Shown piece by piece: positions 33,223-51,951 of a DNA stretch of 64,000 bases. The first letter of the stretch is position 1; every line of letters begins with the position of its first letter. The notes below the pieces were generated by a model. It was not told where the DNA came from, made no database searches, and saw nothing but the letters and a program-made list of their open reading frames with translations. The translations under genes were made by a program, and so were the position numbers. The DNA is from a bacterium (GTDB lineage: Bacteria; UBA8248): contig CBDCRP010000002.1 in NCBI GenBank assembly GCA_965221165.1, forward strand, positions 960,001 to 1,024,000, in the 5' to 3' direction.

Positions 33223-33226
33223 CGCC

Positions 33227-33949: not shown

Positions 33950-34727
33950 CGGTTCGGTTCGGCTTGTCTTTGCGGCGCCCGCCCAGATAGGCCGTGATGA
34001 CCTGCTCGTCGGCCTTCACCTCCTCGACGCCGCCCTGTGCGAGAATCGCGCCCTCGGCCATGACGATCACGGGATCGCAAAGGCGCGAGATGAAATCCAT
34101 GTCGTGCTCTATCATGCAGAACGTATAGCCGCGCTCGCGCTGCAATCGCAGAATCGCATCGCCCAGCGTTTTGAGCAGGGTGCGGTTCACGCCGGCGCCC
34201 ACCTCGTCGAGAAGAACGATCTTCGCGTCGGCCATCATGGCGCGGCCCAGTTCCAGGAGTTTCTTCTGGCCGCCGGAGAGGTTCCCTGCCAGTTCGTCGG
34301 CTACCTGCGTGATTTGAAGAAACTCGATGACTTCCTCGGCCTTGGCCCGAACGCGCTCTTCTTCGGAGCGCACCAACTCGGGCTTCAGCCAGGCTCCGAG
34401 CAGGTTTTCTCCCGCCTGGCCCGAGGGCACCATCATGAGGTTTTCGCGCACCGTCAGGGTGGAGAATTCCTGCGCGATCTGAAAGGTGCGCAGCATGCCC
34501 ATGGCGCACAATTCATGAGGCTTGAGACCGGTGACGTTCTCCCCATCGAGATAGACGCTGCCCGACGTGGGGCGGTAAACCCCGGCGATGACGTTGAACA
34601 GCGTGGTCTTGCCCGCGCCGTTGGGGCCGATGAGACCGGTGATGCGGCCGCCGTCGATAGTGAGGGAAACGCCATCGACGGCGCGAATGCCGCCAAAGTG
34701 CATGTGTAGATCAACGACCGAGATCAT
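33936..34727 (-). CDS. livG: ABC ATP-binding protein (LivG-like)
   Basis: GPNGAGKTT, LSGGQKK and IEHDM motifs. Confidence 0.9.
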   Translation of the reverse strand: MISVVDLHMHFGGIRAVDGVSLTIDGGRITGLIGPNGAGKTTLFNVIAGVYRPTSGSVYLDGENVTGLKPHELCAMGMLRTFQIAQEFSTLTVRENLMMVPSGQAGENLLGAWLKPELVRSEEERVRAKAEEVIEFLQITQVADELAGNLSGGQKKLLELGRAMMADAKIVLLDEVGAGVNRTLLKTLGDAILRLQRERGYTFCMIEHDMDFISRLCDPVIVMAEGAILAQGGVEEVKADEQVITAYLGGRRKDKPNRTDDDE

Positions 34728-34750
34728 AAAATCCGCAAGGAACGCCTGAC

Positions 34751-35935
34751 CTAGTGGTACCGCACGGTGGTGATCTTCCCACCCTTCACCAGTATCTCGC
34801 GGTAGTTGCCCGCGCTCTCACCAGCCCCGATCAGTTCGACCGCCGATGCGCCCACGTAATCGACGTCGCCACCCTTGGCGAGAATCTTGAGCGCTTTGGC
34901 CAGTTCACCGGGATAAATCTTCTCGCCCGGCGCATTGGCGACCATCATCACCTTGTCCTTGAGTTTCATGCTCTTGCTGGAGCCGGCCGCCTGCATGGCC
35001 AGGAGGATCAAGGCCGCGGCGTCATAGGATTCGGCCACGAACGGGGTGCCTCCCTTGAAGCCGGCCTTCTTGGCCAGCGCCCCGAGCTTCGCCGCACCCG
35101 GGCTGTCCGTGCCGGGCACGGTGCCGTAAGAACCATCGAGCGCCTTGCCGATCGCCTTCGGCAGGCTTTCGCCGATCATCCCGTCGGGCAGCACGAAGGT
35201 TTCGAACGCGCCGGTATCGACCGCCGCCCGGATGATGCCCTTGCCGCCCTGGTCCAGGTAACCGGCGACAATCAGAACATCGCCGCCTGCGGCTGCGAGT
35301 GCGCCGACTTCCGCCGTGTAGTCCGCCTTGCCGTCTTCATGCGCCGCGGAAATCGTAATCTTGCCGCCGGCCTTCTCGAAGTTGGTCTTGATGCTATCAG
35401 CCAGGCCCTTGCCATAATCGTTATTGGTGTAAGTCAAGGCCGCCGACTTGACGCCTCTTTCCTTCAAAACGGCGTTGAGAACCTGCCCCTGCCGGGCGTC
35501 GGAGGGAGCGGTGCGGAAGAACAGCCCATTGTCCTTGATGGTGGAAAGAGCAGGTGAAGTCGCCGAGGGGGAAATCATCACGACCCCGTTGGGCATAGCC
35601 ACGTTTTGCAGCATGGCGATGGTGACGCCGGAACAATCCCCCCCGACGATGGCGTTCACCTTATCGGACGTGACCAGACGCTCGGTCGCCGCCCTGGCGG
35701 CCGCTGAATCCGTACAAGTGCTATCGCCGCGCACCGAAACCACCTTGGCGCCGCCCAACAGGGCGCCGCTGTCGCTGACTTCCTTCATCGCCAATTCAGC
35801 GCCCTTGGCCATAGGCGGGGTGAGGGATTCAATGGGGCCCGTATAGCCGAAAATGACGCCCAATTTCACGGTTTCCGCACTGGCCGTCGCACCTGCAACT
35901 AAAACCAAAGCCATCGCAACCAGCAGTTTTTTCAT
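34751..35935 (-). CDS. ABC transporter substrate-binding protein (LivK/LivJ family)
   Basis: Signal peptide MKKLLVAMAL...ASA; SPSATSP, FRTAPSD and NNDYG motifs. Confidence 0.9.
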   Translation of the reverse strand: MKKLLVAMALVLVAGATASAETVKLGVIFGYTGPIESLTPPMAKGAELAMKEVSDSGALLGGAKVVSVRGDSTCTDSAAARAATERLVTSDKVNAIVGGDCSGVTIAMLQNVAMPNGVVMISPSATSPALSTIKDNGLFFRTAPSDARQGQVLNAVLKERGVKSAALTYTNNDYGKGLADSIKTNFEKAGGKITISAAHEDGKADYTAEVGALAAAGGDVLIVAGYLDQGGKGIIRAAVDTGAFETFVLPDGMIGESLPKAIGKALDGSYGTVPGTDSPGAAKLGALAKKAGFKGGTPFVAESYDAAALILLAMQAAGSSKSMKLKDKVMMVANAPGEKIYPGELAKALKILAKGGDVDYVGASAVELIGAGESAGNYREILVKGGKITTVRYH

Positions 35936-36353
35936 TGCTATATCTCCTTCAGGGTCATTGTTGAACAATAAGGTAGATAGTTAGGTCCTCCGCGTAGATG
36001 AAGCCGAATTATACACGAATAAGATGTTGAAAATCGATGAAATTCTTATTCATACACCCGGCGTATCAGGCAGGGGACTTGCCCGGCCTGCTCTTGCCAG
36101 GAACGCGAAGGGCGGGATGACACGCAAGGCCATCATACTGATTACATGAATCATTTTGCAAAAGGTAAGGCGGGAGAGCGCCTCACGGAACTTATTGTGG
36201 GTGTTGTGCGAAGCACCAAAATCTTTGGGTGTGTGTTTCAGCGCCTGTTCGTCATGGGTACGCACAGTGGCGAGGACAGGCACAGGAGACTCCATGTGAA
36301 ATCTCAGATCGCTTGCACCTTATCGACTCTATGATGTTTCCTTGATTTTCAGG

Positions 36354-36392
36354 TGGCACGCCCGGTAGGACTCGAACCTACAACGTTCGGAT
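36354..36392 (-). repeat. att-like direct repeat of the tRNA-Arg(TCG) 3' end
   Basis: TGGCACGCCCGGTAGGACTCGAACCTACAACgTTCGGAT matches 52281-52319 at 38 of 39 nt. Confidence 0.92.
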
Positions 36393-36632
36393 TCCCAATC
36401 GGTAGGTTGCGGCTTTCAATTTCTACATATCTAAACGTAAAAGAATAGCAAGTTCATAAAGGACACGCGACCTGGTACGCACTCTACAATTTTTGTTGGG
36501 GGATTTGTTACGCTTGTGGCAGTGACGATAACGCGTGCCGCCAGTCTGAGCGTGATCAACATCGAAAGGGCATTCCCGCTCCTTCACGACACGTTGCCGA
36601 CGCATAACAAGGACGGAAACGATATGGAATGA

Positions 36633-36662
36633 TTGACTCTTTTGGTGGTGTTGCCGTAAACT
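36633..36662 (+). promoter_or_regulatory. Putative sigma70 promoter of the respiratory cluster
   Basis: TTGACT-18nt-TAAACT, followed by AAGGAG before ATG 36693. Confidence 0.45.
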
Positions 36663-36692
36663 GATAAAGATTTAGCTAAGGAGTTCGCTCCA

Positions 36693-37436
36693 ATGATACG
36701 CAGATACTTCTTACTTTTCGTTTTTTCCCTGCTTTTTCTTTTTATCCCTAACTCTTCCCTGGCAAAGTACAAGGTCGCGCCCACCGCAGGCGGCGGAACC
36801 ATCGCCGGCCGGGTGAGCTTCGAGGGGGATACTCCCGCCCCCGTCAAATACATCATTACCAAGGACCATCACGCCTGTGGCAAAGGCCAGGTCACCCGCC
36901 AGGAGGTGGACGTGAAGGACGGCGCTCTCCGGGGCGTGATTGTCTATCTCCACAAGGTCAAGAAGGGCAAAGCCTTTTCCAAAAAAATCCAGAGCGTCGT
37001 GGTGGACCAGAAGAAGTGCGCCTATGTTCCCTACCTGCAAGTAGTCGCCGAAGGGGGCAAAGTCACCATCCTGAACAGTGACTCTGCCCATCACAACATT
37101 CACACCTACGAGATCATAGGCCGCTCCAAACGGTCCATGTGGAACATCTCTCAACCCAAATTCCGGAAAAAAGTCGTTCGCAAGGCCAAGGTTCGGCGAA
37201 GCCCCATCGTCCGGATCGAGTGTGACGTACACAACTGGATGAAGGGATTCCTCTTCGTGGCCAGGAACCCCTATTACGCGATCGTGAGCGGGGATGGGGC
37301 CTTTCAGATCAAGAATATACCCCCGGGGAAATACTCCCTGCGGGCGTGGCATCCGGCTCTGGGGATCAAGAAGAAAAAGATCACCATTTCCGCCGGTGGA
37401 AAGGAGACTGCCGCCTTCACGTTCTCTTCGAAATAA
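36693..37436 (+). CDS. Exported carboxypeptidase-regulatory-like beta-sandwich protein with a cupredoxin-like metal motif
   Basis: Signal peptide; HNIH ... CDVHNWM; C-terminal DGAFQIKNIPPGKYSLRAWH. Confidence 0.7.
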   Translation: MIRRYFLLFVFSLLFLFIPNSSLAKYKVAPTAGGGTIAGRVSFEGDTPAPVKYIITKDHHACGKGQVTRQEVDVKDGALRGVIVYLHKVKKGKAFSKKIQSVVVDQKKCAYVPYLQVVAEGGKVTILNSDSAHHNIHTYEIIGRSKRSMWNISQPKFRKKVVRKAKVRRSPIVRIECDVHNWMKGFLFVARNPYYAIVSGDGAFQIKNIPPGKYSLRAWHPALGIKKKKITISAGGKETAAFTFSSK

Positions 37437-37509
37437 GGCCGGATTTCCGGCCCAGAGGAGACGGATGTCCTATAGGGTATAGAACAGCTAGCTTTGGGAG
37501 GTAGGAAGA

Positions 37510-38616
37510 ATGGATTTAGTTCGCGCTGTCGGGTGTCGGGTGCTGAGCGGAATCCTGCTGACTGCCTGGATTTTTCTTCCTGCCGCGGGCTGGGGTGCTT
37601 CTTTCTCGCCTCTTCCGGCGCCCAAGGCCCAGAAGCCCGCCCGGACCGAGTTGGGCCGGCATCTGTTCTTTGAACCCCGGTTGTCGGGGGACGGAGGGAT
37701 CAGTTGCGCCACCTGCCATCAACCCGCCAAGGGATGGGGCGATGGACAGAGCCTGTCCACGGGCTATCCCGGGAGCAAGTATTTCCGAAACGCGCAGACC
37801 CTCCTGAACGCCACCTACCATAAACGAGTCTTCTGGGACGGTCGTCTGAGCGGGGCCGACCTGCCTACGCTCGTTCGGGATCACCTGACCGAGGCCCACT
37901 TCATGCTGGTTGACGGCCGGTTGTTTCCCGAGCGGCTCAAGCAGATTCCCCTTTATGTGAAGAAATTCAAAGAGGCCTACGGAGGGGAGCCTTCCTTCGG
38001 GGGCGCGCTGAAAGCCATCGCGGCGTTCCTCCATACCATCACCTCCCGGGACGTTCCTTTTGATGAGTATCTCAAGGGCGAGAAAAAAGCCCTTTCCTCC
38101 CAGGCCAAACAGGGCCTCGCCCTGTTCCAGGAGAAGGCCGGATGCGTCCAGTGCCATAACGGAGCTCTTTTGAGCGACGGAGACTTCCATGCGCTCGGCG
38201 TTCCTGAAAACGAGCAGATATTCAAAGATCCGCTGCGCCACATCACTTTCCGCCGGTTCAACAAGGTCATCGGCGTTCCGAATTTCATGAACCTCAGGGC
38301 CGACCCGGGTCTCTACGTCGTGACGAAAGAAGAGAGCGACCGGGGCAAGTTCCGCACGCCGACTTTGCGGGAAGTCGCTCGAACGGCCCCCTACATGCAC
38401 AACGGCGCATTCGCCACGCTTGAGGACGTCGTCGCCTTTTATGACAAGGGCGGCGGCCGCGGCCCCAACAAGAGTCCACGCTTGAAACCCCTGGGCCTCA
38501 AGGCGGATGAGCGTAAAGCCCTGGTGGAATTCCTGAAAAGTCTCTCCGGCGATCCGGTTTCCATGAAGGCGCCGAAGCTTCCCGAATATGAAGTCCGCAA
38601 GCTGGGTGATAATTGA
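37510..38616 (+). CDS. Diheme cytochrome c peroxidase/MauG family (IdrP-like)
   Basis: Signal peptide; CATCH and CVQCH; FWDGR; FRTPTLREVARTAPYMHNG. Confidence 0.9.
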   Translation: MDLVRAVGCRVLSGILLTAWIFLPAAGWGASFSPLPAPKAQKPARTELGRHLFFEPRLSGDGGISCATCHQPAKGWGDGQSLSTGYPGSKYFRNAQTLLNATYHKRVFWDGRLSGADLPTLVRDHLTEAHFMLVDGRLFPERLKQIPLYVKKFKEAYGGEPSFGGALKAIAAFLHTITSRDVPFDEYLKGEKKALSSQAKQGLALFQEKAGCVQCHNGALLSDGDFHALGVPENEQIFKDPLRHITFRRFNKVIGVPNFMNLRADPGLYVVTKEESDRGKFRTPTLREVARTAPYMHNGAFATLEDVVAFYDKGGGRGPNKSPRLKPLGLKADERKALVEFLKSLSGDPVSMKAPKLPEYEVRKLGDN

Positions 38617-38626
38617 GGAGACGGCC

Positions 38627-39766
38627 ATGAAAAGACGAATGAAAAATTGGTTCGTGGGTTCAACGATGGCCGTTTGCTTCATCGCCGTCCTTCTGACGGG
38701 AGGAGCCGGCTCGGCCCAGGAGGGGAAATTCCCTCCCCTGGGACCCCTTCCGCCGGTTCCGGTTCCGGCGGACAATCCCACCTCTCCGGCCAAGGTGGAG
38801 TTGGGCAAGCTCCTCTTTTTCGACGCCCGGTTGTCGGGGGACGCCAGCACGTCCTGCGCCTCTTGCCACAGCCCGGAGAGCGGCTGGGGAGACGGGGGGG
38901 ATCTGAGCCGGGGTTATCCGGGCACGCAGCACTGGAGGAACTCCCAGACAATCCTGAATTCAGCCTATTACGCAAAATTGTTCTGGGCCGGCGAGGTTCC
39001 GAGTCTGGAAGCGCAAGCCAAGAGCGCCGCCACCGGCAACGTGGCCGGGAACGGCGACACCATGATGATGGAGGAGCGTCTGCGCCAGGTGCCGGAGTAC
39101 GTCAAACGCTTTCGCGAGGTATTCGGAGCCGCCTGGCCGACCATCGACGACGCCTGGCGGGCCATTTCTGCCTTCGAGCGCACACTGGTCTCCAGGGCGA
39201 AGGACGTGCCGTTCGACCGCCACATGAAAGGGGACCGCAAGGCGCTTTCAGAAAGCGCGAAGCGGGGGTTGGCTCTTTTTCGCGGAAAGGCCCGGTGTGT
39301 CCAGTGCCATAACGGACCCCTGTTGTCAGACGATGACTATCACAACATCGGCGTTCCCCAAAATCCCGCATTCGAGGAAGACCCCCTGCGGCAGATTACC
39401 TTGCGTTTTCAGCACGTGATTCGGGGAGTACCGGAATCCGTGTACCGAAAGGCGGACCGGGATTTGGGGCTCTACTACACCACCAAGCGCAAGGCCGACC
39501 GGGGGAAGTTCCGTACCCCCAGCCTCCGGGAGCTGAAATACACGGCGCCCTATATGCATAACGGCGCATTTTTCGAGTTGGAAGAGGTCATTGATTTTTA
39601 TGACGAAGGAGGGGGAGAGGACCCGAACAAAAGTCCCCTTCTCAAGAAATTGGGGCTTTCAGACGAGGAGAAGGAGGATCTGCTGGCCTTTCTGCTGTCG
39701 ATATCGAGCGATAAGCCTTTGCTCGTTCAGCCACCTGAACTGCCGCCGTACGCGGCCATGCCGTAA
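38627..39766 (+). CDS. Diheme cytochrome c peroxidase/MauG family (IdrP-like, second paralog)
   Basis: GAGGAG RBS; signal peptide; CASCH and CVQCH; FRTPSLRELKYTAPYMHNG. Confidence 0.9.
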   Translation: MKRRMKNWFVGSTMAVCFIAVLLTGGAGSAQEGKFPPLGPLPPVPVPADNPTSPAKVELGKLLFFDARLSGDASTSCASCHSPESGWGDGGDLSRGYPGTQHWRNSQTILNSAYYAKLFWAGEVPSLEAQAKSAATGNVAGNGDTMMMEERLRQVPEYVKRFREVFGAAWPTIDDAWRAISAFERTLVSRAKDVPFDRHMKGDRKALSESAKRGLALFRGKARCVQCHNGPLLSDDDYHNIGVPQNPAFEEDPLRQITLRFQHVIRGVPESVYRKADRDLGLYYTTKRKADRGKFRTPSLRELKYTAPYMHNGAFFELEEVIDFYDEGGGEDPNKSPLLKKLGLSDEEKEDLLAFLLSISSDKPLLVQPPELPPYAAMP

Positions 39767-39776
39767 GGAGGAATCC

Positions 39777-40319
39777 ATGAGCCACGAAGCCAAGGAAACC
39801 CGGCCTTGCATGTCCCGGCGGGCCTTTCTCCTGACCGGCGGAACCGCCGTGAGCGTGGTGCTGGTTACGGGCATCCCCGGTCTGGCCGGGGCGGCCCTGC
39901 AGAAGGCTGCTTATCCCCGCAAGAGAATCGGCAAGCTCGGCAGTCTCAAGGTCGATGCGCCGCAATACTTCCAATACCCGTGGAAAGACGTCTTCTCGGG
40001 ATGCATGCTGCTCAAGTTGGGTGTCGAGGCCGGCGGCGGCGTCGGTTCCAAGAGAGACGTCGTGGCGTTCAGCACCATTTGCACCCACATGGGCGGTCCC
40101 CTTCAGGGCACCTACAACGGGAAGTACAAGGCCATTGGCCCGTGCCCCTTTCATTTGACGACCTTCGACCTGATGAAGCACGGCATGGTCGCGGCGGGAC
40201 AGGCCACGGAAAGCCTTCCCCAGGTCGTTCTGGAGACCCGTGGAGACGACATCTACGCGATCGGGATGATGGGCCTCATATACGGTTATCACTCAAACCT
40301 TGCGCCGCTACAGCGCTGA
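39777..40319 (+). CDS. idrB: Tat-exported Rieske small subunit (AioB/IdrB family)
   Basis: SRRAFLL Tat motif; CTHMGG...CPFHLTTFD; GQATESLPQV; GLIYG. Confidence 0.82.
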   Translation: MSHEAKETRPCMSRRAFLLTGGTAVSVVLVTGIPGLAGAALQKAAYPRKRIGKLGSLKVDAPQYFQYPWKDVFSGCMLLKLGVEAGGGVGSKRDVVAFSTICTHMGGPLQGTYNGKYKAIGPCPFHLTTFDLMKHGMVAAGQATESLPQVVLETRGDDIYAIGMMGLIYGYHSNLAPLQR

Positions 40320-40331
40320 GGAGGACGCACC

Positions 40332-42998
40332 ATGGCAAGAAGTGTGACCAACTACTACCTTGCGGAAGACAGTGTACCCCTCCCGCCGCCGGACGCGGAG
40401 GTTTTCACCACGGCGTGTGACTATTGCATCGTGGGCTGCGGGTACAAGGTGTACCGGTGGCCGGTCGGACGCGAGGGCGGACCCAAGGGCGTGGAGAACG
40501 CCTTGGGCGTCGATTTCCCAACCGGCATGATGAGCGGCGCCTGGATCAGCCCGAACATGCACAACATTATCCTGGTAAACGGTCGCCCCCACCACGTTAT
40601 CGTCATGCCCGATAAGGATTCGAAGGTCGTGAACGTAGGGGGGAACCACTCCATCCGGGGCGGCGTCCTGGCCAAGAAGCTTTTTAATCCCAACGAACCC
40701 TCGCAGGATCGCCTGCGTCAACCGATGATGCGGGTTCGCGGAACCCTCCAGGAGGTTTCGTGGGAAACGGCCCTGGGCGTCATGGCGGGAATCTCGAAAC
40801 ACGTCCTCGATAAGTACGGCGAGCATGCCTGGGCCATGAAGACGTATTCCTATCAGTATTTCGAAAATACATACGCCATCTCCAAGCTCGCTTTCCGCGC
40901 CATCGGGACGCCGGCCTACGCCCCGCACGACAAGCCGGGCCCCGGCCCGGACACGCCCGGGATCGATTTTTCGGGGATCAACCCCTTCAGCGCTTCTTAT
41001 GACGACTGGGGAGAGGCCGAGGTGATCTTCTTCTCCGGCGTCGATCCATGGGAAACCAAGTCGGTCTTGTTCACCTCCTGGATCATGGGAGGGAAAACGC
41101 CCGGCAAGAAGCTCGTCTTCGCCCTTCCCCGGAAGACCACGGGCGTGGCCTACGGTGAGAAACAGGGCGGTCTTTTCCTTCCGGTCATCCCGGGAACGGA
41201 TACGGTGCTTCACCTGGCCATCATTCGCCTGATCCTGGAAAACGGCTGGGAGGATAGGGAGTGGATTGCGCGAAAGTTGGCGAACAAGTGGGAGATAAAC
41301 TCCGGCATGGGGCGCGGAACCCGCAACACGCCGTGGCAGTGGGTCACGACCTGGGGCAAGTACGGGACCGACTTCGACGGCTACAAGAAGTGGATTCTAA
41401 GCTACCCCTACGCCGAGTTGGACCAAGCCGCCAAGATTACGGGCGTGTCCGCGGCATCCATTCGGAAGACCGCTGAAATACTGGCCAAGCCCAAACCCGA
41501 CGGGACGCGCAAGAAAACCTCGTTCATGCTCGAGAAGGGAAATTACTGGTGCAACAGTTTCGGGAACACGGCTTCCTTCGCGGCCCTCGGGCTGGTTTGC
41601 GGCGCCGGGTCGCGGCCAGGCCGTGTGATTTCCCGCGGAGGGGGGCATCAACGGGGCTGGATGGGCGCAGCCGGTTACCCGAGGAGCCTGTCTCCGGAGA
41701 AGGCGCCGGGACGCCGCAAGAAGGAAATCGATCTGGACCGGTGGGTCGTGGACGGCCACGTCCGCTTTGCATGGGTCATCGGAACCACCTGGTGTCAAGC
41801 CATGGCGGCTTCTCAGGAACTGATGGACGTCTTCCAGCGATTGACTCGCCACAATCCCCATCAGATCGATAGCTTCGACGTTGATGCGGCGGTGAACGCG
41901 CTCAAGCGACGTGCGGACGCCGGCGGCATGGTTGTGGCCCACCAGGACATTTACCCTGTTTCTCCGATCGGAACCGAGTATGCGGATCTGGTGCTTCCGG
42001 CCGCCACCTGGGGCGAGGAAGACTTTACCCGGTGCAACGGCGAGCGTCGCCTCAGGCTGTACAGCAAGTTCGCCGATCCCCCCGGAGAGGCCAGGCCCGA
42101 TTGGTGGATCATCGCAGCGTTCGCCAGGAAGATGGGATTCAAGGGTTTCGACTGGAAAGACAGCAACCAAATCTTCGAGGAGGCGGCCCGCTTCGGACGC
42201 AAGGGGGTACTCAACTACCATCCGCTCGTGGTGAAGGCCAAGCGCGAGGGGAAACGGGGCCACGAATTGCTCCGCGAATACGGGACCGGCGGCATTCAAA
42301 CCCCCATACGCATGGTCAAGGGAGAACTCGTCGGGACGAAGCGGCTCCATGATGAAACCCTTGAATTGGGAACCCCGGAAGGCCCCACGATGCACAGGAA
42401 ATGGCTCACCTCCTTCGGGACCCAGAGCGGCAAGGCGGTTTTGCTGAAAAGCTACTGGGAGGACTTCAAGGATTTCTACGATCGGGTTACTCCGCAAGGA
42501 GACGAGCTGTGGGTGACGAACGGCCGGATCAACGAGCTGTGGCAATCCGGCTACGACGACAAGCGGCGGCCCTATATCATGCAGCGCTGGCCTCAGCAGT
42601 TCCTGGAAATTCACCCGCAAGACGCCCGCGCCCGCGGCATCGAATCCGGAGACCTCGTGGCTATCGAGAACGACGACCTGCTCGTGCAGACGGGAGGATA
42701 CATCGGCGTCGACGGCAAGGAGCAGACGTTTACCGAGCTGATGAAGGCCGGACGAATCAAGAAAAGCAAGGGGAGCTTCACCGCGGTGGCCATCGTCACG
42801 GATGCGGTTCGGGCGGGCGTCACCTTCGCCTATTTCGGCTTTCCCGAAAACCCGGCCAATTCGGTGGTTCACCGGGTGCCGGACCCCCTGACCAACCGCT
42901 ATCGCTATAAGCTGGGCAAGGGGAAGTTGAAGAAGATTGGAGAATCTCCGCACAAGCATTCCCTGACGAGTCTTAGTTTCGTTCCCCGGACGCTTTGA
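40332..42998 (+). CDS. idrA: DMSO reductase-family molybdoenzyme large subunit, AioA/IdrA clade (iodate reductase-like)
   Basis: CDYCIVGCGYKVYRWP [3Fe-4S] motif, YFENTYAI, HDKP, EKG, GGHQRG and NGRINELWQS. Preceded by two peroxidases and a Rieske gene. Confidence 0.82.
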   Translation: MARSVTNYYLAEDSVPLPPPDAEVFTTACDYCIVGCGYKVYRWPVGREGGPKGVENALGVDFPTGMMSGAWISPNMHNIILVNGRPHHVIVMPDKDSKVVNVGGNHSIRGGVLAKKLFNPNEPSQDRLRQPMMRVRGTLQEVSWETALGVMAGISKHVLDKYGEHAWAMKTYSYQYFENTYAISKLAFRAIGTPAYAPHDKPGPGPDTPGIDFSGINPFSASYDDWGEAEVIFFSGVDPWETKSVLFTSWIMGGKTPGKKLVFALPRKTTGVAYGEKQGGLFLPVIPGTDTVLHLAIIRLILENGWEDREWIARKLANKWEINSGMGRGTRNTPWQWVTTWGKYGTDFDGYKKWILSYPYAELDQAAKITGVSAASIRKTAEILAKPKPDGTRKKTSFMLEKGNYWCNSFGNTASFAALGLVCGAGSRPGRVISRGGGHQRGWMGAAGYPRSLSPEKAPGRRKKEIDLDRWVVDGHVRFAWVIGTTWCQAMAASQELMDVFQRLTRHNPHQIDSFDVDAAVNALKRRADAGGMVVAHQDIYPVSPIGTEYADLVLPAATWGEEDFTRCNGERRLRLYSKFADPPGEARPDWWIIAAFARKMGFKGFDWKDSNQIFEEAARFGRKGVLNYHPLVVKAKREGKRGHELLREYGTGGIQTPIRMVKGELVGTKRLHDETLELGTPEGPTMHRKWLTSFGTQSGKAVLLKSYWEDFKDFYDRVTPQGDELWVTNGRINELWQSGYDDKRRPYIMQRWPQQFLEIHPQDARARGIESGDLVAIENDDLLVQTGGYIGVDGKEQTFTELMKAGRIKKSKGSFTAVAIVTDAVRAGVTFAYFGFPENPANSVVHRVPDPLTNRYRYKLGKGKLKKIGESPHKHSLTSLSFVPRTL

Positions 42999-43049
42999 TG
43001 GAGATGGATGCTTACAAACCCGTAGAACCGTGAGGGAGGTTGAAAACGA

Positions 43050-43430
43050 ATGACTCGATCGAGAAGCTTTTTCATCTGCGCCATCGGCGTACTCGGAATG
43101 GCGATCTTTTTCTGGTCCTCTAATGACGGCGTCGCTCAGCAAAAAGGCGACGCTGCGGCCGGCAAGGTCAAATACCAGCAGCTTTGCGCCTCCTGCCACG
43201 GGGCGAAGGGCAAGGGCGACGGTCCCGCTGCCGGTGCGCTCAACCCGAAACCCAGAAATCACACGGACGCCAAATATATGAAGACCATATCGGATGAGTA
43301 TATCGCCAAGATCACCAAGCTAGGCGGCGTCGCGGTAGGGAAATCGCCGTTGATGCCCCCCTGGGGCGGAGTTCTTTCGGACCCGGACGTCCGAAACGTA
43401 GTCGCATTCATTCGCTCCCTGGCGAAATAG
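43050..43430 (+). CDS. Monoheme class I cytochrome c
   Basis: Signal peptide, CASCH and distal MPPW. Confidence 0.9.
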   Translation: MTRSRSFFICAIGVLGMAIFFWSSNDGVAQQKGDAAAGKVKYQQLCASCHGAKGKGDGPAAGALNPKPRNHTDAKYMKTISDEYIAKITKLGGVAVGKSPLMPPWGGVLSDPDVRNVVAFIRSLAK

Positions 43431-43434
43431 GAGC

Positions 43435-45492
43435 ATGGGGATGGATTCAGGGAATCGGGATACTCTCCCCCCCGAGCGCTCCTTTCGGGTCGAGTTGCCC
43501 GGCCACGACCACTGGCGGAAAACGATTTCTTGCCAGGCGGCCTGTCCCGTCCATACGGACGCGCGGGGTTACGTGACCGCAATCTCCGAGGAGGACTTTG
43601 AGCGTGCATATATCATCGCCCGGGGACCAAACCCCTTTGCGTCCGTTTGCGGACGCATCTGTGCGGCGCCGTGCGAAGCGGCCTGCCGCCGCGGCAACAT
43701 CGACGCGCCGGTGGCTATCCGGGCGCTCAAGCGATTCGTAACGGAGCGCTACGGGGTAGAGGCCGATTTGTCGTCCGGAAAGAGAGAAACCCCCTTCTCG
43801 CACCGGAGCCTCGGGAGTCTGCGCGATCTCCGTTTTCAGCCCTCCACACGCACCATCAACGATTTCTCGGTGCTGGAGGCGGCCCGCCGGAAACCCGAAC
43901 AGGGAAAGACGGCGGGGAAAAAAGTGGCCGTCGTCGGATCGGGTGTAGCGGGGTTGACTTGCGCCCACGATCTCGCCTTGCTCGGCTATGACGTGAGCGT
44001 TTTCGAAAAGCAGGGAGTCCCCGGAGGCATGCTGATGCTCGGGGTTCCTGAGTACCGGCTTCCGCGCGATCTCGTTCAGGCCGAGATCCAGGCCATACTC
44101 AGCCTGGGTGTGGAGCTACGACTGAACAAAGCCATCGGGCGAGACTTCGACCTTTCCGCTCTTCGCGAGGAAGGCTTTGAAGCGGTGTTCATCGCCATCG
44201 GCGCTCATGTAAGCCGCAGCCTTCCCGTGGAGGGGCGGGACGCAGACGGTGTTTTCCGGGCCGTTGAATTTCTGCTGAACGTGAATCTGAATTTCCGCGT
44301 CGAATTGGGTGAGCGCGTCGTCGTGATCGGCGGGGGAAACGTGGCCATGGACGCCGCCCGGGTCGCCGCCCGGGTCGCCGGTCAGGCGGATGTTCCCTCG
44401 AGCGTGAGCGATCAAACGGAGGACGCCGTCCACATGCGGGAAATGATGGACGTGGCCCGGCAGGCGATGCGCGTAGGAGCGAGGAGCGTCCATGTCGTCT
44501 GCCTGGAATCCCGCGATGAGATGCCGGCGTCGGATTTCGAGATTGAAGAAGCGCTGGGTGAAGGGATCGAGATCGAGCCTCGGGTGGCACCCATTCGTAT
44601 TGTAGAGAACGGGGGCCGGGTGGCCGGGCTGGAAGTCCACACATGCACCCGTGTCCGTGACGAAGAGGGCCGCTTCAGTCCGGAATTCGAACCCGGCACC
44701 AATCGCGTGATTCCGTGCGATTCGGTAATCGTAGCCGTCGGCCAGTCCTCCGACCTGTCCTGGATCGGCGAGGAGGACGGCATCGAGACGACGCCGCGAG
44801 GGACAATCCGTATAGATCCCCAAACCCTGGCCACAACCGCACCGGGCGTGTATGCGGGAGGAGACGTTGCCCAGGGCCCCCGGATCTTCATTGAAGGGGT
44901 GGAAAACGGCCACCGGGCCGCTCGCTCCATCCACACCTATCTTTCAGGCGGCCAGGTCAACGTCCAGACCCATTTTCAGTGGGCCCCCATCGAACCCTTG
45001 CGGCAAGCGCTGCTTCAGGAGCCGGGAGATGGATTTTCGCTCCCCATCGTCAATCCCGGCTACCAGAAAACTTCCCGGCGAAACCCCGACGCGCTGCCCA
45101 TCGAGCGCCGAATCGGCGTCGCCGAGGTGGAACTGGGCTATTCGCCCGGGGAAGCGGTCGATCAGGGAGTCCGGTGCCTGCGCTGCAGCGCGAATCCGAT
45201 CTTCGACGGCGCCAAGTGCATCCTGTGCGGCGGTTGTGTGGACGTCTGCCCGTCACGCTGCCTTCGAATGGTTCCTCTGGAAGCCCTTCAGGGAGGAGAG
45301 GATCTGGCGGCTTTGATCCGCACTCGCTACGGGACGTCCGCCGGGGGCGCCGGAGAGGTGGGAAGAGGCGCGGCCATGATCATGGATCCGGACGCGTGTA
45401 TCCGTTGTTCGCTCTGTGTGCAGCGTTGTCCCACGGGCGCCGTCACCATCGAGAATTTTTCTTTCCAGGAAGAATGGGTGGAGCTTGGATGA
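43435..45492 (+). CDS. GltD/NfnA-like FAD- and Fe-S-containing NAD(P) oxidoreductase with a C-terminal 2[4Fe-4S] domain
   Basis: CQAACP...CGRICAAPCEAAC, GSGVAG, GGGNVA, CLRC, CILCGGCVDVCP and CIRCSLCVQRCP. No signal peptide. Confidence 0.9.
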   Translation: MGMDSGNRDTLPPERSFRVELPGHDHWRKTISCQAACPVHTDARGYVTAISEEDFERAYIIARGPNPFASVCGRICAAPCEAACRRGNIDAPVAIRALKRFVTERYGVEADLSSGKRETPFSHRSLGSLRDLRFQPSTRTINDFSVLEAARRKPEQGKTAGKKVAVVGSGVAGLTCAHDLALLGYDVSVFEKQGVPGGMLMLGVPEYRLPRDLVQAEIQAILSLGVELRLNKAIGRDFDLSALREEGFEAVFIAIGAHVSRSLPVEGRDADGVFRAVEFLLNVNLNFRVELGERVVVIGGGNVAMDAARVAARVAGQADVPSSVSDQTEDAVHMREMMDVARQAMRVGARSVHVVCLESRDEMPASDFEIEEALGEGIEIEPRVAPIRIVENGGRVAGLEVHTCTRVRDEEGRFSPEFEPGTNRVIPCDSVIVAVGQSSDLSWIGEEDGIETTPRGTIRIDPQTLATTAPGVYAGGDVAQGPRIFIEGVENGHRAARSIHTYLSGGQVNVQTHFQWAPIEPLRQALLQEPGDGFSLPIVNPGYQKTSRRNPDALPIERRIGVAEVELGYSPGEAVDQGVRCLRCSANPIFDGAKCILCGGCVDVCPSRCLRMVPLEALQGGEDLAALIRTRYGTSAGGAGEVGRGAAMIMDPDACIRCSLCVQRCPTGAVTIENFSFQEEWVELG

Positions 45493-45493
45493 C

Positions 45494-45985
45494 ATGACTG
45501 CGAGCCTGGATGAATCGACCCCCCGGCGGCGGATGCTTTTGGGTCTCGGCTGGGTTTCCTTCCTGGTCTCCCTGCTGGGTCCGGTTCTCGCCAACGTCCG
45601 GTTTTTGTTCCCCAACGTCGTTTATGAAGGCGAGGCAGTTCTGAAACTCGATTCCCTGAAGAAGTACCCCGTGGGTTCCATCACGTTTTTTGCAGAAAAA
45701 AAAGTGGTTCTTTTCCGTGAAAAGGACGGATTTAGGGCCTGTACGGCCGTCTGTCCCCATCTTCGTTGTGTGATTGGTCCCTTCGTCGGGGCGCCCGGGG
45801 CGTCTCCTGATATTTTAAGGGCCCGGTGCCCGTGCCACGGCAGCACTTTCGACGGCCGGGGACAGGTGCTCGGGGGGCCTGCGCCTCGAGGACTCGATTT
45901 TTTCCTCGTAACGAAATCGCCGGATGGCCGCGTCGTGGTCGATACGCGCAAAGTCGTCGGTCCCTCCGAGCATTTCAGACTCTGA
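45494..45985 (+). CDS. Rieske [2Fe-2S] subunit of a Rieske/cytochrome b complex
   Basis: RRRMLL plus TM helix; CPHLRC...CPCHGSTF; GPAPRGL. Confidence 0.9.
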   Translation: MTASLDESTPRRRMLLGLGWVSFLVSLLGPVLANVRFLFPNVVYEGEAVLKLDSLKKYPVGSITFFAEKKVVLFREKDGFRACTAVCPHLRCVIGPFVGAPGASPDILRARCPCHGSTFDGRGQVLGGPAPRGLDFFLVTKSPDGRVVVDTRKVVGPSEHFRL

Positions 45986-45994
45986 GTCGACATC

Positions 45995-47491
45995 GTGGCT
46001 ATTGAACCCCCACCGAAATCAGGGCGCAGAAAAGCCGCATCCTGGATTAGGGACAACCGCGTAGTCCGCTCGATCTTCCGCCGCGGCTACCCGGACAACG
46101 ATCTGGACCGCTCGGCGGTCATGTTCTCTAATTTCTTCCTTCACGTCCTTCCCGCGCGAACACACGTCAACAGCCTGAAGCCCACCTACACCTGGGGGCT
46201 CGGCATCATCTCTTTTTTCCTCTTTCTCATTCTTACGGGCACCGGCTTTTTGCTCATGTTCTTCTACGTCCCTTCGACCGAACGCGCCTATAACGACATG
46301 AAAGACCTGCAATTCGTCGTCTCCTACGGCATTGTCTTGCGAAACCTCCATCGCTGGGCTGCCCATGCGATGGTCGCCATCGTCTTTTTGCACATGTGCC
46401 GGGTGTTCTACACGAGCAGCTATAAAGCGCCCCGTGAGTTCAACTGGGTTATCGGGGTGCTCCTCTGGGGGGCGACCCTGATGATGAGCTTCACGGGCTA
46501 TCTGCTCCCCTGGGATCAACTCGCCTATTGGGCCATCACCGTCGGGTCGAGCATCGCCAGCTATCCGCCCCTGGTTGGAGAATACATTCGCACCCTGATG
46601 CTCGGAGGCGACACGGTGGGGCAAAACGCCTTGATCCGGTTTTACGTCATGCATGTCGTGGTCCTGCCGGGCATTATGCTCATACTCATGGGCGTCCATT
46701 TCTGGCGGATTCGCAAAGACGGGGGCCTCTCTCGTCCACCCACGGAGCCCCTGAAGGCCGCTGTAGGCAAGTCGGCGGCTTTTTCGCCGCACAAGACATA
46801 CATGCTCGTGGAACTGGCGGAAGGCAAAACGCCCATGGTGGATGCCCAGGCCCCGGAGGAAGAGGTCATGAGTTGGCCTCACACGGTTTTCAGAATGCTG
46901 GTCGTCTTCGTGGGAGTCGTGGCGGTTCTCTCCGCCGTCGCCTATTTTTTCGATGCTCCTCTGGAGGAGTTGGCCAACCCCGAGCATCCGCCCAACCCCG
47001 CCAAAGCCCCCTGGTACTTCCTTGGACTTCAGGAAATCGTGAGCTATTCCGCTCTGGCGGGAGGCGTCATCGTTCCCGCCGCTGCGATTATCGGCCTCAT
47101 GAGCATTCCCTACATAGACCGCAACCCGGAGGGCCAGGGAAATTGGTTCACCTCACACCAGGGTCGGCGGATTACGCTTGGGTCGGTCCTGGCGATTATT
47201 CCGGTCGTCCTCATCCTGACCTATCTGAACGAGCACTACGCCGTGCGGAAGCTGGTTCCGGGCGCTCCGCAAATCTGGGTCGACCTCTTGAATCCGGGGA
47301 CCATACTGATCGCTCTGTTCGCCGTCGGGTCGCTTTACACCTGGCGGCGGACGGGGTCGAGCCGGATGGGGGCCTTGGCCTTGTATTCTTATTTTCTGAC
47401 GTCTTATGTGATTTACACGATCATCGGGCTTTATTTTCGTGGAGCCAACTGGGCCTGGATATGGCCGTGGCAGGCCATGGGCCTGCACTGA
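45995..47491 (+). CDS. Cytochrome b (fused b6 + subunit IV)
   Basis: [28 protein letters not shown]-x14-H and [14 protein letters not shown] motifs. Confidence 0.92.
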
Positions 47492-47503
47492 GGCCGATAA
47501 CGA

Positions 47504-48307
47504 ATGACGAATTCAACGCAGAATAATTCCTATGTACCGTTCGGGTGGGTGGTCGCATTCGCCGTGCTGAGCGTGTGCGCGGCCTTATTCTTTCTGCTGT
47601 CCGTCTGGAAGGATTACGACCGCGAATGGAGGGGCTATCAACGGACGTTCCGTGAAATGCTCGTCGCAAGAACAGAAAGCGAAGAGGAGCGTAAAACCGT
47701 TCTGGCGAGCGGAGATCAATTCGAGCAGATCATCGTGGACCGAGGCGAGCGCGTAGACAGGTGCGTCATGTGCCATCGGGGAATCGAGCACCCGGCGTTT
47801 CAGGGCGCCGCTCAACCCTTCGCCAGCCATCCCTCCATCCCGCTGCATCCCTTCGAGCAATTCGGTTGCACCGTGTGCCACCAGGGCCAGGGCAGGGCGA
47901 CGACCCTTCAGGATGCCCACGGAGAAGTCCGGTTCTGGGAGGAGCCGCTCCTCCGGGGAGGGTTCATTCAAGCCAGTTGCGGTCCGTGTCACGCAGGCGT
48001 TTTGAAAGAGGCCCCTCTCATTCAGAAGGGAAAGCTGCTTTATCTGATGAACGGCTGCATCGCCTGCCACAAAATCAGGGGAGCCGGCGGGGTTGTCGGG
48101 CCCGACCTGACGTTTGCGGGGGAGCGCCGGAAAGACCCGAAATGGCACATCGAACATTTCAAGGCCCCGCAAAGGGTTTCTCCCGGATCCGCCATGCCCG
48201 CCTACACCCACTTGTCGCCGGCGGACCTCGAAGCGCTGACGGTTTACATGTTGAGCCTCCGCAGGGCCCCTTCCGCCTTGGCGCTGGCTGCACCCAGAAA
48301 AAAATAG
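47504..48307 (+). CDS. Membrane-anchored tetraheme cytochrome c
   Basis: N-terminal TM helix; CVMCH, CTVCH, CGPCH and CIACH; GPDL...SAMP. Confidence 0.88.
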   Translation: MTNSTQNNSYVPFGWVVAFAVLSVCAALFFLLSVWKDYDREWRGYQRTFREMLVARTESEEERKTVLASGDQFEQIIVDRGERVDRCVMCHRGIEHPAFQGAAQPFASHPSIPLHPFEQFGCTVCHQGQGRATTLQDAHGEVRFWEEPLLRGGFIQASCGPCHAGVLKEAPLIQKGKLLYLMNGCIACHKIRGAGGVVGPDLTFAGERRKDPKWHIEHFKAPQRVSPGSAMPAYTHLSPADLEALTVYMLSLRRAPSALALAAPRKK

Positions 48308-48334
48308 AAATAGTATCGCTCTTCCGCGGTCGCG

Positions 48335-49699
48335 CTAGTTGAGCAGCACCCTCGGTAGCCACATGGCGATGCCGGGAAAGGCCATGACCAGCCCCAGCCC
48401 GATGAGTTGGAGAATCACGAAGGGGATGATCCCGCGATATATCTGCGAGAGGCGCACCTGGGGCGGCGCTACCCCCTTCATGTAGAACAGCGCGAAGCCG
48501 AAAGGCGGGGTCAGGAACGATGTCTGTAGGTTGACCGCCATCAGAATCGAGAACCAGTAGATGACCTCGCTCTTGGGCAGGTGGTCGCCGAAGTCCAGCC
48601 CGGCGAGGATCGGCGCAAACACCGGGAGCACGATGAGCGTGATCTCGATCCAGTCGAAGAAGAACCCGAGGAAGAACGTCACCGCCATCAGGATCCCCAG
48701 GATTCCCCAGGGGTTGACCCCCACGGAGTAGATCACGTCCTTGATGAAGTCGTCGCCGCCGAGCGAGCGGAAGACGTAGGAGAAGGCGGTCGCCCCGACG
48801 AATATGAAGAACAGCATCGCGTTGGTGAGCGCGGTGCGCTCGACCACGTCCTTCAGGACCGAGAAGTTCAGCTTGCGGTTGAAGATGGCGAGCAGAGTCG
48901 CTCCGGCCGCGCCGACCCCTGCCGCTTCGGTGGGCGTCGCCCAGCCGAGGATGATCGACCCCAGGACCAGGACGATCAGAAACACCGCCGGCACCAAGCC
49001 TTTGAGCAACATCAGGATCAGTTCGTTTGGCGTCTGTGGACCCATCTCCTTGGGCAGGCGCGGCGCCAGGGAGGGATTCACGGCGCACCGCGTGAAGATG
49101 TAGACGAAATAGAGCCCGGAGAGGATCAGGCCGGGGAAGATGGCCGCGACGAACAGGGTTCCCACCGAACGCCCGAGAAGATCGGCCATGATGACCAGCA
49201 TGATGCTGGGCGGTATCAGTATCCCGAGCGTGCCCGAGGCGGCGATGGTGCCGGTCGAGAGCTCCATGTTGTATTTGCGCTCGACCATGACCGGCAGCGC
49301 CATCAGGCTGATCATCACGACCGAAGCGCCGATGATGCCGGTCGTCGCCGCGAGGATCGTCCCCATGACCGTGACCGCGAGCGCCAGCCCGCCCGGGGTG
49401 CGGCGCAGCACCACCTGGAGGCAGTACAGGAGGTTGGCGGCGACGCCGGAGCGTTCCAGCATCGTCCCCATGAAGATGAACATGGGGATCGCAACGAGAA
49501 CCAGGTTGTCGGCGAAACCCCAGATCCGGAGCACGAGGTTGAAGAACTCGATTTGGGAGAAGACATCGAAATACATGCCGATAAAGCCGAAGGCGAGCCC
49601 CACGCCGCCCAGTACGAATCCGACCGGGAAGCCCGAGAACAAGAGAGTCGCCAGGGTGAGGAACATGAAGGCCGGCAGGTAGTCCTCGACATAGAACAT
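48335..49699 (-). CDS. dctM: TRAP transporter large permease
   Basis: AIPMFIFMG, SGTLGILIPPS, ATPTEA and SFLTPPFG motifs. Confidence 0.93.
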   Translation of the reverse strand: MFYVEDYLPAFMFLTLATLLFSGFPVGFVLGGVGLAFGFIGMYFDVFSQIEFFNLVLRIWGFADNLVLVAIPMFIFMGTMLERSGVAANLLYCLQVVLRRTPGGLALAVTVMGTILAATTGIIGASVVMISLMALPVMVERKYNMELSTGTIAASGTLGILIPPSIMLVIMADLLGRSVGTLFVAAIFPGLILSGLYFVYIFTRCAVNPSLAPRLPKEMGPQTPNELILMLLKGLVPAVFLIVLVLGSIILGWATPTEAAGVGAAGATLLAIFNRKLNFSVLKDVVERTALTNAMLFFIFVGATAFSYVFRSLGGDDFIKDVIYSVGVNPWGILGILMAVTFFLGFFFDWIEITLIVLPVFAPILAGLDFGDHLPKSEVIYWFSILMAVNLQTSFLTPPFGFALFYMKGVAPPQVRLSQIYRGIIPFVILQLIGLGLVMAFPGIAMWLPRVLLN

Positions 49700-49711
49700 G
49701 CGCAGGCGCCC

Positions 49712-50290
49712 CTAGCTCGGCCCGATCTGGTCGATCTGTTCGGTCGCGTGCTCTTCCTTTTTGGGGAGGAGTTGGCGAAGGTCCGGTGGGCCGAACAGCT
49801 CGATGATCTTGCGCAGCAGGACGGTGATCCCCGACAGGAGCAGGACGAACAGCCCGATAGGCAGGCACGCCTTGATCGCCCAGCGATAGGGAAGGCCGGT
49901 CGCGGAGTCTGAGGCCTCGCCGACGGCCCATGATCTCTCGACGAAGTCTTCGGCGAAATAGACGACAATCAGGCAGTAGGGGATCACGAACACGATGCAG
50001 CCCACGAACTCGACCCAATCCCTGGCGCGCGAACTCAACCGCTCACGGATCAGGTCGATTCGCACGTGGGCGTCGTTGAGATAAGCGAAGCCTATACACA
50101 GCAGGAACAATAGCGCGTGCAGGTGCCACTCGCCTTCCTGCAGCTTGGTCGATCCCAGCACCAGGAAACGCCGGGTCACGACGTCGAAAATGATGACGAC
50201 CATCAGCGGAATCGAGAACCACGCGCTGACTTTACCGACGCCGATCACGATCCGGGCCAGAAACTCTTGCAATTGAAACAGATGCCGCAT
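49712..50290 (-). CDS. dctQ: TRAP transporter small permease
   Basis: Four TM helices; EWHL and HVRIDL motifs. Confidence 0.9.
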   Translation of the reverse strand: MRHLFQLQEFLARIVIGVGKVSAWFSIPLMVVIIFDVVTRRFLVLGSTKLQEGEWHLHALLFLLCIGFAYLNDAHVRIDLIRERLSSRARDWVEFVGCIVFVIPYCLIVVYFAEDFVERSWAVGEASDSATGLPYRWAIKACLPIGLFVLLLSGITVLLRKIIELFGPPDLRQLLPKKEEHATEQIDQIGPS

Positions 50291-50318
50291 CAATGGGCTT
50301 CCTGGCGCAACATACGCG

Positions 50319-50359
50319 AAAAAGGCGCCGGAACCGTGACCGTTACGGTTCCGGCGCCT
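50319..50359 (-). terminator. Intra-operon hairpin after dctP
   Basis: 15-bp perfect stem AGGCGCCGGAACCGT/ACGGTTCCGGCGCCT followed by a T-run on the - strand. Confidence 0.7.
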
Positions 50360-50402
50360 GTACTGTGGTCAAGCGGAACGGCGGAGCGCCGTCACATCGG
50401 TC

Positions 50403-51464: not shown

Positions 51465-51831
51465 CTGCAGTTCCCTCCCTTCGAGTTAGACGCGTTTCAA
51501 AAAGGGGCGACTCATCTCAACTACGGATAAGCCGCCCAATAAAGCTCCCACGCCATGCGTTACGCCAACAAATATATTCCATTTACTAAAATATATTCTA
51601 TCTCTCATTCGGCCGCTGTCAAGGGGGTAGAAATCCGGGTATCCATTATTTTTTCCGAAGCTCTGACAGGCTGTCTATGGGCAGTACAAAGGGGAGGTAC
51701 CCTTGTTGCGGGCTGGAGACGTGGACTAACCGCAGGCGAATTTCCGATCTTTGTCGTAGATATACCATAGGCGTCGGGCGGTACTCGGCATCCCGGGCCG
51801 TCCCCCGTGAAGCCGGGTAGGGCCGCGGGGC

Positions 51832-51951
51832 GCCGAGCACGCGGCCGGGATCGGAAACGACTGCGGCGATATCCGCCACGCGGAGTGAGGAGGTGGTCGT
51901 GGCGAGCACGGCTTCATGAGGGGCGTACGCATCCAGTTCCCTGAATATCTC
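51832..51951 (-). pseudogene. Remnant of a 3-hydroxyacyl-CoA dehydrogenase NAD-binding domain
   Basis: EIFRELDAYAPHEAVLATTTSSLRVADIAAVVSDPGRVLG resembles the F..LD....A.LATNTSSL...IA....P.R.LG motif. Preceded by an in-frame TAG and lacks the following HFFNP. Confidence 0.6.

Follow-up and report, generated by a model that had tools for sequence, protein, structure and literature searches.

Why should a molybdoenzyme of the arsenite oxidase/iodate reductase kind be encoded in one gene block with a Rieske/cytochrome b complex, and in which direction would electrons run between the two? The question is raised by ten genes at 36693..48307 of a 64,000-nucleotide stretch of bacterial DNA (the window; contig CBDCRP010000002.1 of assembly GCA_965221165.1, positions 960,001 to 1,024,000 of the forward strand), which an earlier note had read as an iodate-reductase-like enzyme clustered with its own flavoprotein-Rieske/cytochrome b complex. 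Both halves of the block are of known kinds, and their combination is real, conserved and new. The two halves are probably coupled in function. That the block joins an iodate reductase to its own NAD(H)-linked Rieske/cytochrome b complex, bifurcating electrons from menaquinol, is our preferred reading, though a tentative one.

The block consists of ten open reading frames (ORFs) on the + strand, spanning 11.6 kb in the order first described for it, and the small gaps reported earlier are confirmed at 1-73 bp (73, 10, 10, 12, 51, 4, 1, 9 and 12 bp, from gene 1 to gene 10). Starts were corrected for the second peroxidase (38627), IdrB (39777) and the module Rieske protein (45494). Family scans (Pfam, NCBIfam) gave a beta-sandwich, two CCP_MauG peroxidases, an AioB-family Rieske protein and an AioA-family Mo subunit for genes 1-5, and a cytochrome c, a GltD-family flavoprotein, a Rieske protein, a cytochrome b plus subunit IV and a multihaem cytochrome for genes 6-10. 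There are two haem-binding motifs in each of genes 2 and 3, one in gene 6 and four in gene 10. By the two halves we mean genes 2-5 (idrP-P-B-A) and genes 6-10 (the five-gene Rieske/cytochrome b module); G numbers denote genomes of the host-phylum set (G000 being the window's own genome) and L numbers denote loci.

36693..37436, + strand: exported protein whose sequence shows an amicyanin-like type-1 copper motif and a C-terminal beta-sandwich
37510..38616, + strand: first IdrP, a dihaem cytochrome c peroxidase (CCP_MauG, E 2e-41)
38627..39766, + strand: second IdrP, a dihaem cytochrome c peroxidase (CCP_MauG, E 5e-43)
39777..40319, + strand: IdrB, Rieske small subunit exported by twin-arginine translocation (Tat) (TIGR02694, 119 bits, cut-off 96)
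40332..42998, + strand: IdrA, molybdopterin/[3Fe-4S] catalytic subunit (TIGR02693, 455 bits)
43050..43430, + strand: monohaem cytochrome c, the module's first gene (Pfam)
43435..45492, + strand: cytoplasmic GltD/NfnB-family FAD flavoprotein with an N-terminal Fe-S part and a C-terminal 2x[4Fe-4S] part (Pfam/NCBIfam)
45494..45985, + strand: membrane-anchored Rieske protein with Ser117/Phe119, of the mid-to-high potential type (best PDB matches 9rk4 and 9rk3)
45995..47491, + strand: fused cytochrome b6 and subunit IV (haem-b histidines, His50, APWY-clade Qo motif)
47504..48307, + strand: membrane-anchored tetrahaem cytochrome c, a cytochrome c1/f replacement (Pfam; four haem motifs; helix 16-34)

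Genes 2-5 are, on sequence grounds, an idrP-P-B-A iodate reductase. The window IdrA is 58% identical to that of Azonexus hydrophilus NCP973, an iodate respirer (PMC13455634), and 60% to that of the iodate-reducing species Notoacmeibacter marinus (PMC11445184). In a FastTree tree of 43 sequences it falls in one clade with these two (support 1.0), as sister to Rokubacteria and Methylomirabilota sequences. Alignment of the substrate channel shows the AioA Glu replaced by Asp, the adjacent Arg by Lys and the Gly-rich loop missing, all as in tested IdrA, and IdrA-type pocket residues and insertions are shared. Two cytochrome c peroxidases accompany idrB and idrA, the gene neighbourhood of an iodate reductase. 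The first is 50% identical to the first peroxidase of NCP973 and shares its paralogue signature, the second carries the signature of the second NCP973 peroxidase, and the pair is aligned in the same order. A twin-arginine leader is visible by eye in the IdrB translation, and hydrophobic N-termini are present on IdrP and IdrB and absent from IdrA, so that the predicted set of a Tat-exported IdrB, a leaderless IdrA and Sec-type peroxidases is that of an iodate reductase. Clade membership and pocket residues settle the Mo subunit, left as AioA/IdrA in the earlier note, as IdrA, and we infer that the window's sub-clade reduces iodate. An identity as arsenite oxidase was considered and rejected: the protein lies outside the AioA clade, is 29-31% identical to four AioA sequences and differs from them in its channel residues.

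The gene 1 protein has the copper motif residues Cys177, His180 and Met183, together with His134 or His137. Its Pfam matches are to fn3_3/CarboxypepD_reg only, a 'blue type 1 copper' cluster is among its neighbours in the atlas, and its homologues adjoin idr genes in several phyla. It travels with the idr genes and, we infer, binds copper. A paralogue with a weak amicyanin match (L050 7518-10426) lies divergent near a chlorite-dismutase-family gene; enzymes of that family have been discussed for hypoiodous acid removal in strain SCT (PMC8692401).

The second half begins with the single cytochrome c. In G040, G048 and G050 a five-gene module is found on its own, preceded by an Rrf2 regulator and headed by a cytochrome c of this type (72-75% identity). 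The cytochrome therefore belongs to the module and not, as first grouped, to the idr enzyme; it is the probable shuttle to IdrAB/IdrP. The flavoprotein that follows has Lys99 in 107/108 aligned sequences and Glu358 in 108/108; Lys99 aligns with a Glu of 4ylf, and Glu358 stands in for an Arg-rich site. Read by the Rossmann-fold rules that separate NAD from NADP sites, and with the roles that we presume for the NfnB residues at the equivalent positions, the nucleotide site looks NAD(H)-type rather than NADP(H)-type, so that of the NAD(P) link suggested earlier the NAD(H) part is the likelier. The best PDB match is 9bov/9bp5, the same structure that served as template for the anammox flavoprotein subunit (PMC12954380), and no hydrophobic helix is present. 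With its four Fe-S sites and a Lys at the FAD-proximal cluster the protein is of the anammox type. Flavin bifurcation to ferredoxin of the NfnAB type was rejected, given Lys in place of Glu, Glu358 and the lack of nfnA in the block. Ferredoxin reduction, another suggestion of the earlier note, likewise finds no support, since the ferredoxin domain is part of the same electron chain.

The best structural matches of the module Rieske protein, 9rk4 and 9rk3, are, judging from the entry names, presumably the two Kuenenia Rieske proteins of the anammox complex study. Its Ser and Phe are invariant (7/7); Rieske proteins of this Ser/Phe type lie at ~+260 mV (PMC4122944), and +335 mV has been measured for the Kustd1480 Rieske (PMC12954380). 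The module protein would thus fall in the high-potential class, as the same type as Kustd1480. In the fused cytochrome b, the haem ligands His119/133/220/235 and the APWY-clade motif of the quinol-oxidizing (Qo) site occur in 121/121 aligned sequences and His50 in 118/121. The haem cN cysteine at position 68 was found in 0/121, 120 having Gly or Ala and one a gap, which fits a weakened quinone-reducing site. By spacing, His50 and Arg240/Lys241 correspond to the ligands of the extra interface haem in the anammox model. His and Arg are spaced 190 apart here, against 204 in the housekeeping paralogue (with a 14-residue insert) and 204 in Kuenenia, and the equivalence to Kuenenia His43/His62 derives from this spacing and not from an alignment of the Kuenenia cytochrome b.

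The traits named for the anammox complexes are a Lys replacing the fourth ligand at the FAD-proximal cluster, an interface His with a downstream Arg/Lys and a Ser/Phe Rieske protein such as Kustd1480 (PMC12954380). An anammox-type scheme is favoured here because the Lys, the interface His with its Arg/Lys and a Ser/Phe Rieske are all present; the resemblance of the second half to an anammox-type complex, first noticed from the gene content, is upheld by the Rieske structure match, Lys99 and the interface His. The split b6 plus subunit IV with haem cN (CxGG) of that type is replaced here by a single fused chain. Thus, the module appears to resemble the anammox complex in working, but to be a variant of it. 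It is also additional to a separate housekeeping complex. A cytochrome b match occurs in 50 of 51 genomes of the phylum, mostly in a distant split form, and in the window's own genome the housekeeping cytochrome b carries the haem cN cysteine, with a polyferredoxin encoded after it. That locus (L048, G000:C3:357945-371324) encodes a Rieske protein, cytochrome b6 with an extra interface His and subunit IV; also in the vicinity are a 1003-aa multihaem cytochrome and, ~4 kb downstream, a 159-aa four-cluster ferredoxin.

How firmly the halves are linked can be judged across the host phylum, for which 51 genomes of one class were available. The phylum is the UBA8248 lineage, which we take to be largely sponge-associated. 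UBA8248 has been placed near Tectomicrobia (PMC10839748); the database labels of close relatives are 'Nitrospinota bacterium' or 'bacterium'. The flavoprotein and fused cytochrome b are present in 20/51 genomes and idrA in 18/51; all 18 idrA genomes carry the module, two have the module without idrA and 31 have neither. The earlier note had proposed a synteny search, and the halves do occur together elsewhere: they are adjacent on one contig in 15/18, the module following idrA in 14 and preceding the idr genes in G036, whilst the block is cut by contig ends in G015 and G022 and the halves are unlinked in G048. The cytochrome b tree (support 97-100) places the G036 module in the lineage of the stand-alone modules and not in the window's; this placement is for the cytochrome b only, the G036 flavoprotein having been excluded from its tree because of a frame break. 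With two gene orders and two module lineages, the link either came about on two occasions or withstood a rearrangement. The full ten-gene order is found again in 11/46 loci of the idr search and in the metagenome locus L084, so it is not due to chance, and chance adjacency in one genome was rejected as an explanation. A metagenome scan with the flavoprotein returned 46 loci, of which L084 has the full block, L085-L093 are distant members (44-52% identity) and the other 36 were excluded as short or weak matches. In the available DNA flanking L085-L093, idr genes were not found. The module of L085-L090 includes an octahaem cytochrome, and ahead of it are encoded a homologue of the copper protein, a monohaem outer-membrane-like protein and a two-component system.

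The lack of an obvious internal terminator, remarked on before, holds: a scan of 33000-52000 found no + strand terminator in the gaps of the block, all + strand matches lying inside ORFs and a hairpin in the first gap being called on the - strand only, although the 21 sites found overall are at chance level (18.7 +/- 5.1 in shuffles). The sole promoter-like site upstream of the block is at 36633-36662, in a scan that was itself at chance (4 found, 5.1 expected). In some relatives the genes are spaced further apart, by ~700 bp behind gene 1 (L002), ~450 bp behind idrA (L009) and ~300 bp ahead of the flavoprotein gene (L017), and internal promoters are therefore possible.

The block may also be mobile. 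A segment of 11.6-11.9 kb is conserved whilst its flanks differ, its 12 relatives forming several flank groups. To its left in the window lies a fragment of a tRNA gene:

36337..36392, - strand: degenerate copy of the tRNA-Arg(TCG) 3' end (91% identity over 56 bp), an att-like left boundary

This fragment is a direct repeat of 52265-52319, at the tRNA-Arg located at 52281-52357, and in L010 and L012 the block adjoins the same tRNA-Arg(TCG) in the opposite orientation. The conserved block in differing flanks and the tRNA-linked repeat together suggest an island moving as a unit. The 3' end of the block is 27 bp from a convergent gene of a TRAP transporter, dctPQM (window 48335-51464, - strand), which stands between the block and a tRNA cluster; this is not so in L010 and L012. 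Beside the tRNA cluster, a protein with a DehI halocarboxylic acid dehalogenase domain is encoded at 53019-54086 (- strand) and also adjoins the block in L010 and L012.

Part of the block exists twice in the genome. An exact 697-bp copy at G000:C2:626476-627172 (L047 8477-9173) contains the idrA 3' end, the whole cytochrome c gene and 22 flavoprotein codons, and lies directly upstream of genes for a dihaem cytochrome, a Tat-exported napA-like Mo enzyme and napG/H-like proteins. It is either a recent duplication or an assembly artefact; none of seven relatives has it upstream of nap. In two contig runs from a single sample (30/30 bins covered), read depth rises somewhat across the duplication, a figure that is not a copy number. 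The napA-like enzyme (L047 10075-12714) scores well short of every NCBIfam cut-off (336 bits, where NapA requires 904) and occurs in 19/51 genomes of the phylum.

In the mechanism that we favour, menaquinol would be oxidized at the Qo site, where its two electrons would part ways. The high-potential electron would pass from the Rieske protein to the tetrahaem cytochrome c, the monohaem cytochrome c and IdrAB/IdrP, and so to iodate and peroxide in the periplasm. The low-potential electron would pass through haems bP and bN to a predicted dimer-interface haem (at His50), and on through four Fe-S clusters and FAD to NAD+. Complex I would then re-oxidize the NADH. This NADH loop would take the place of the quinone-reducing step of the Q-cycle, recovering more of the large drop to iodate. 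That electrons run from quinol to NAD+ and to iodate and peroxide is a direction we propose with slightly more doubt than belief. On paper, recycling through complex I yields 10 rather than 6 charges per 2 electrons, and the high-potential branch needs an acceptor above about +0.33 to +0.38 V, with iodate at +0.55 to +0.67 V; these figures are arithmetic and are no evidence on the direction of flow. A published potential for iodate is 0.72 V at pH 8.1 (PMC8692401). The 'self-contained' chain of the earlier note is an overstatement: the block has no quinone-reducing input, and the halves are unlinked in G048.

The remainder of the genome supplies some of the partners that such a scheme would use. 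Genes of the futalosine pathway to menaquinone are present, as are complex I subunits and a single haem-copper oxidase; RuBisCO and CdhC were not found in this 96% complete genome, nor was a convincing ATP citrate lyase. One citrate-lyase-domain match is marginal (E 4e-6), probably a CoA ligase, and was therefore not counted towards a reductive tricarboxylic acid cycle. The host is apparently heterotrophic, to judge from its genes. A bd oxidase was not found in the genome either, and a nosZ search matched 0/51 genomes of the phylum, its control likewise giving no match. Close to one nuoF (G000:C2:1179789-1200525) are two groups of three antiporter-like complex I subunits, six in all, which may reflect either a duplicated or an extended membrane arm.

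Several observations weigh against bifurcation in a dedicated complex. At a protonmotive force of 0.2 V the energetic margin is thin, 2.0 eV being needed and 1.98 available. Complexes of the APWY type have been suggested to run in reverse (PMC4122944), and the anammox bifurcation mechanism is itself a proposal (PMC12954380). The second gene order comes from one assembly (G036, the same as L015), with five Ns between the module and idr, apparent frame breaks in the flavoprotein and tetrahaem genes and a deletion in idrA. Of the 18 idrA genomes 15 belong to one genus, and the module stands alone in G040 and G050 and is unlinked from idr in G048. Most idr clusters do without the module: outside the host lineage it was found near idr in 0/31 loci (12 of them with full 10-kb flanks on both sides), and a flavoprotein match was missing from nine of ten outside idr genomes, the tenth having a 38% partial match. 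A napA-like enzyme is present in 17/20 module genomes, so co-occurrence at the genome level partly reflects one anaerobic sub-lineage.

The same module could work in the other direction, with the flavoprotein oxidizing NADH and feeding the b haems, either to reduce menaquinone or to pass electrons straight to the Rieske protein. Supply to IdrAB and the peroxidases would then be fast but less efficient, and perhaps serve mainly to detoxify iodate, hypoiodous acid or H2O2. Such a flow is thermodynamically downhill, every sequence feature fits either direction, the carbon-fixation searches above gave no autotrophic need for NADH, and iodate is reduced at low oxygen by aerobic marine bacteria that carry idr (PMC11445184). 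However, it would waste energy relative to complex I, which the genome has, an argument already made for anammox (PMC12954380), and the missing haem cN speaks against an ordinary quinone-reducing site; we consider NADH oxidation unlikely, though the main competitor. Less likely again is that the module supplies electrons generally at low oxygen, to Nap, peroxidases and others, and lies beside idr by shared regulation or by hitch-hiking on a mobile island. The stand-alone Rrf2-headed modules, the co-distribution with Nap, the exact cytochrome c copy upstream of the nap-like operon in the window's own genome, and the tRNA-linked repeat in several flanking contexts all point that way. Yet the gaps at the junction are only 51 and 4 bp, two gene orders have arisen with different module lineages, the nap operon has a NapG/H-like quinol dehydrogenase of its own, and the duplicated cytochrome c is peculiar to this genome among the relatives compared.

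It is very improbable that the Mo enzyme oxidizes arsenite or iodide and that reverse electron transport through the complex leads from cytochrome c to NAD+. Reverse operation has been proposed for the APWY clade (PMC4122944), the Mo subunit matches the AioA-family model and the genome has a haem-copper oxidase. Against this, the protein belongs to the IdrA clade and has peroxidase partners, the tested NCP973 IdrA carries the same NCBI name, 'arsenate reductase (azurin)', the iodide/iodate couple lies ~0.9-1 V above NAD, and the carbon-fixation markers sought in the genome were not found. The oxidative running that the earlier note had entertained is accordingly unlikely. If menaquinol bifurcation is the right reading, a wider one follows that is speculative and, in our view, somewhat doubtful: a bifurcating, NAD+-reducing Rieske/cytochrome b complex may be a general device that different bacteria couple to periplasmic reductases which do not pump and whose acceptors are of very high potential. 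Were this so, electrons recycled via complex I would harvest energy that a normal Q-cycle loses, and the iodate version would be the first in which complex and oxidant sink come in one clonable 11.6-kb block.

The block can be set beside four kinds of known system. The idrABP1P2 systems compared were those of Pseudomonas sp. SCT, Denitromonas IR-12, Azonexus hydrophilus NCP973, Notoacmeibacter marinus and Ca. Methylomirabilis iodofontis. The window block resembles them in the order P-P-B-A, in clade and pocket residues, in its Tat-exported IdrB and in a cytochrome c after idrA, which is often there. Unlike them, it adds a dedicated NAD-linked Rieske/cytochrome b complex and a copper protein. 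The IR-12 cluster is without a quinone oxidoreductase and relies on the general bc1 complex (PMC8692401); in NCP973 no quinone oxidoreductase was found within 12 kb of the idr cluster. The idr cluster is described as idrP2-P1-B-A only in the accessible text of PMC10989891, and the words 'Rieske' and 'cytochrome' are missing from the main text of PMC13455634. Other membrane modules accompany some idr clusters of other phyla, with bd-like subunits in L025 and L034 and a haem-copper-family subunit in L019; accessory modules among L019, L025, L034, L038 and L043 also include a 1650-aa multicopper protein and cbb3-like cytochromes.

With the Kuenenia stuttgartiensis complexes Kuste4569-4574 and Kustd1480-1485 the block shares a Rieske protein, a b6-type cytochrome, a multihaem cytochrome c and an Nfn-like flavoprotein, as well as the Lys at the FAD-proximal cluster, the interface His and the Rieske best PDB matches. 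It differs from them in the fusion of cytochrome b with subunit IV, in the lack of haem cN and in having four haems instead of six or eight. It also encodes a high-potential sink, IdrAB/IdrP, and its host looks heterotrophic. For Kustd1480-1485, no driving reaction or high-potential sink is proposed in the available part of PMC12954380. The Qo motif and the loss of the CxGG cysteine in long forms are shared with subfamily G of Dibrova et al. (PMC5600118) and the APWY clade of Kao and Hunte (PMC4122944). NAD(P)-binding Fe-S proteins are found together with cytochromes b of subfamily G (PMC5600118), and the window cytochrome b is 60% identical to the fused cytochrome b CBE67833.1 of Ca. Methylomirabilis. 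An iodate reductase partner, in contrast, goes unmentioned in the accessible text of both accounts, and the latter states that no member of the APWY clade had been characterized as of 2014 (PMC4122944). The AioAB enzymes have the same pairing of a Rieske small subunit with a Mo/[3Fe-4S] large subunit, and their hidden Markov models match above cut-off, but they are separated from the window proteins by clade, by 29-31% identity and by other substrate-channel residues, and they lack the peroxidase pair.

The pairing of idr with the module, which the earlier note believed undescribed, was not found described in the literature covered, the main texts of openly accessible papers. Its value lies mainly in making an unproven bioenergetic mechanism testable. 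That a Rieske/cytochrome b complex reduces NAD(P)+ with electrons from quinol has been proposed for anammox bacteria but never shown (PMC12954380), whilst idr genes have been functionally expressed in E. coli (PMC13455634). The window block offers a simpler version of the complex together with a defined, assayable high-potential sink, so that this question can be approached more directly than in the anammox systems. For the microbial reduction of iodate, which is a key step in the cycling of marine iodine, it also brings in a further bacterial lineage and a new design of electron supply.

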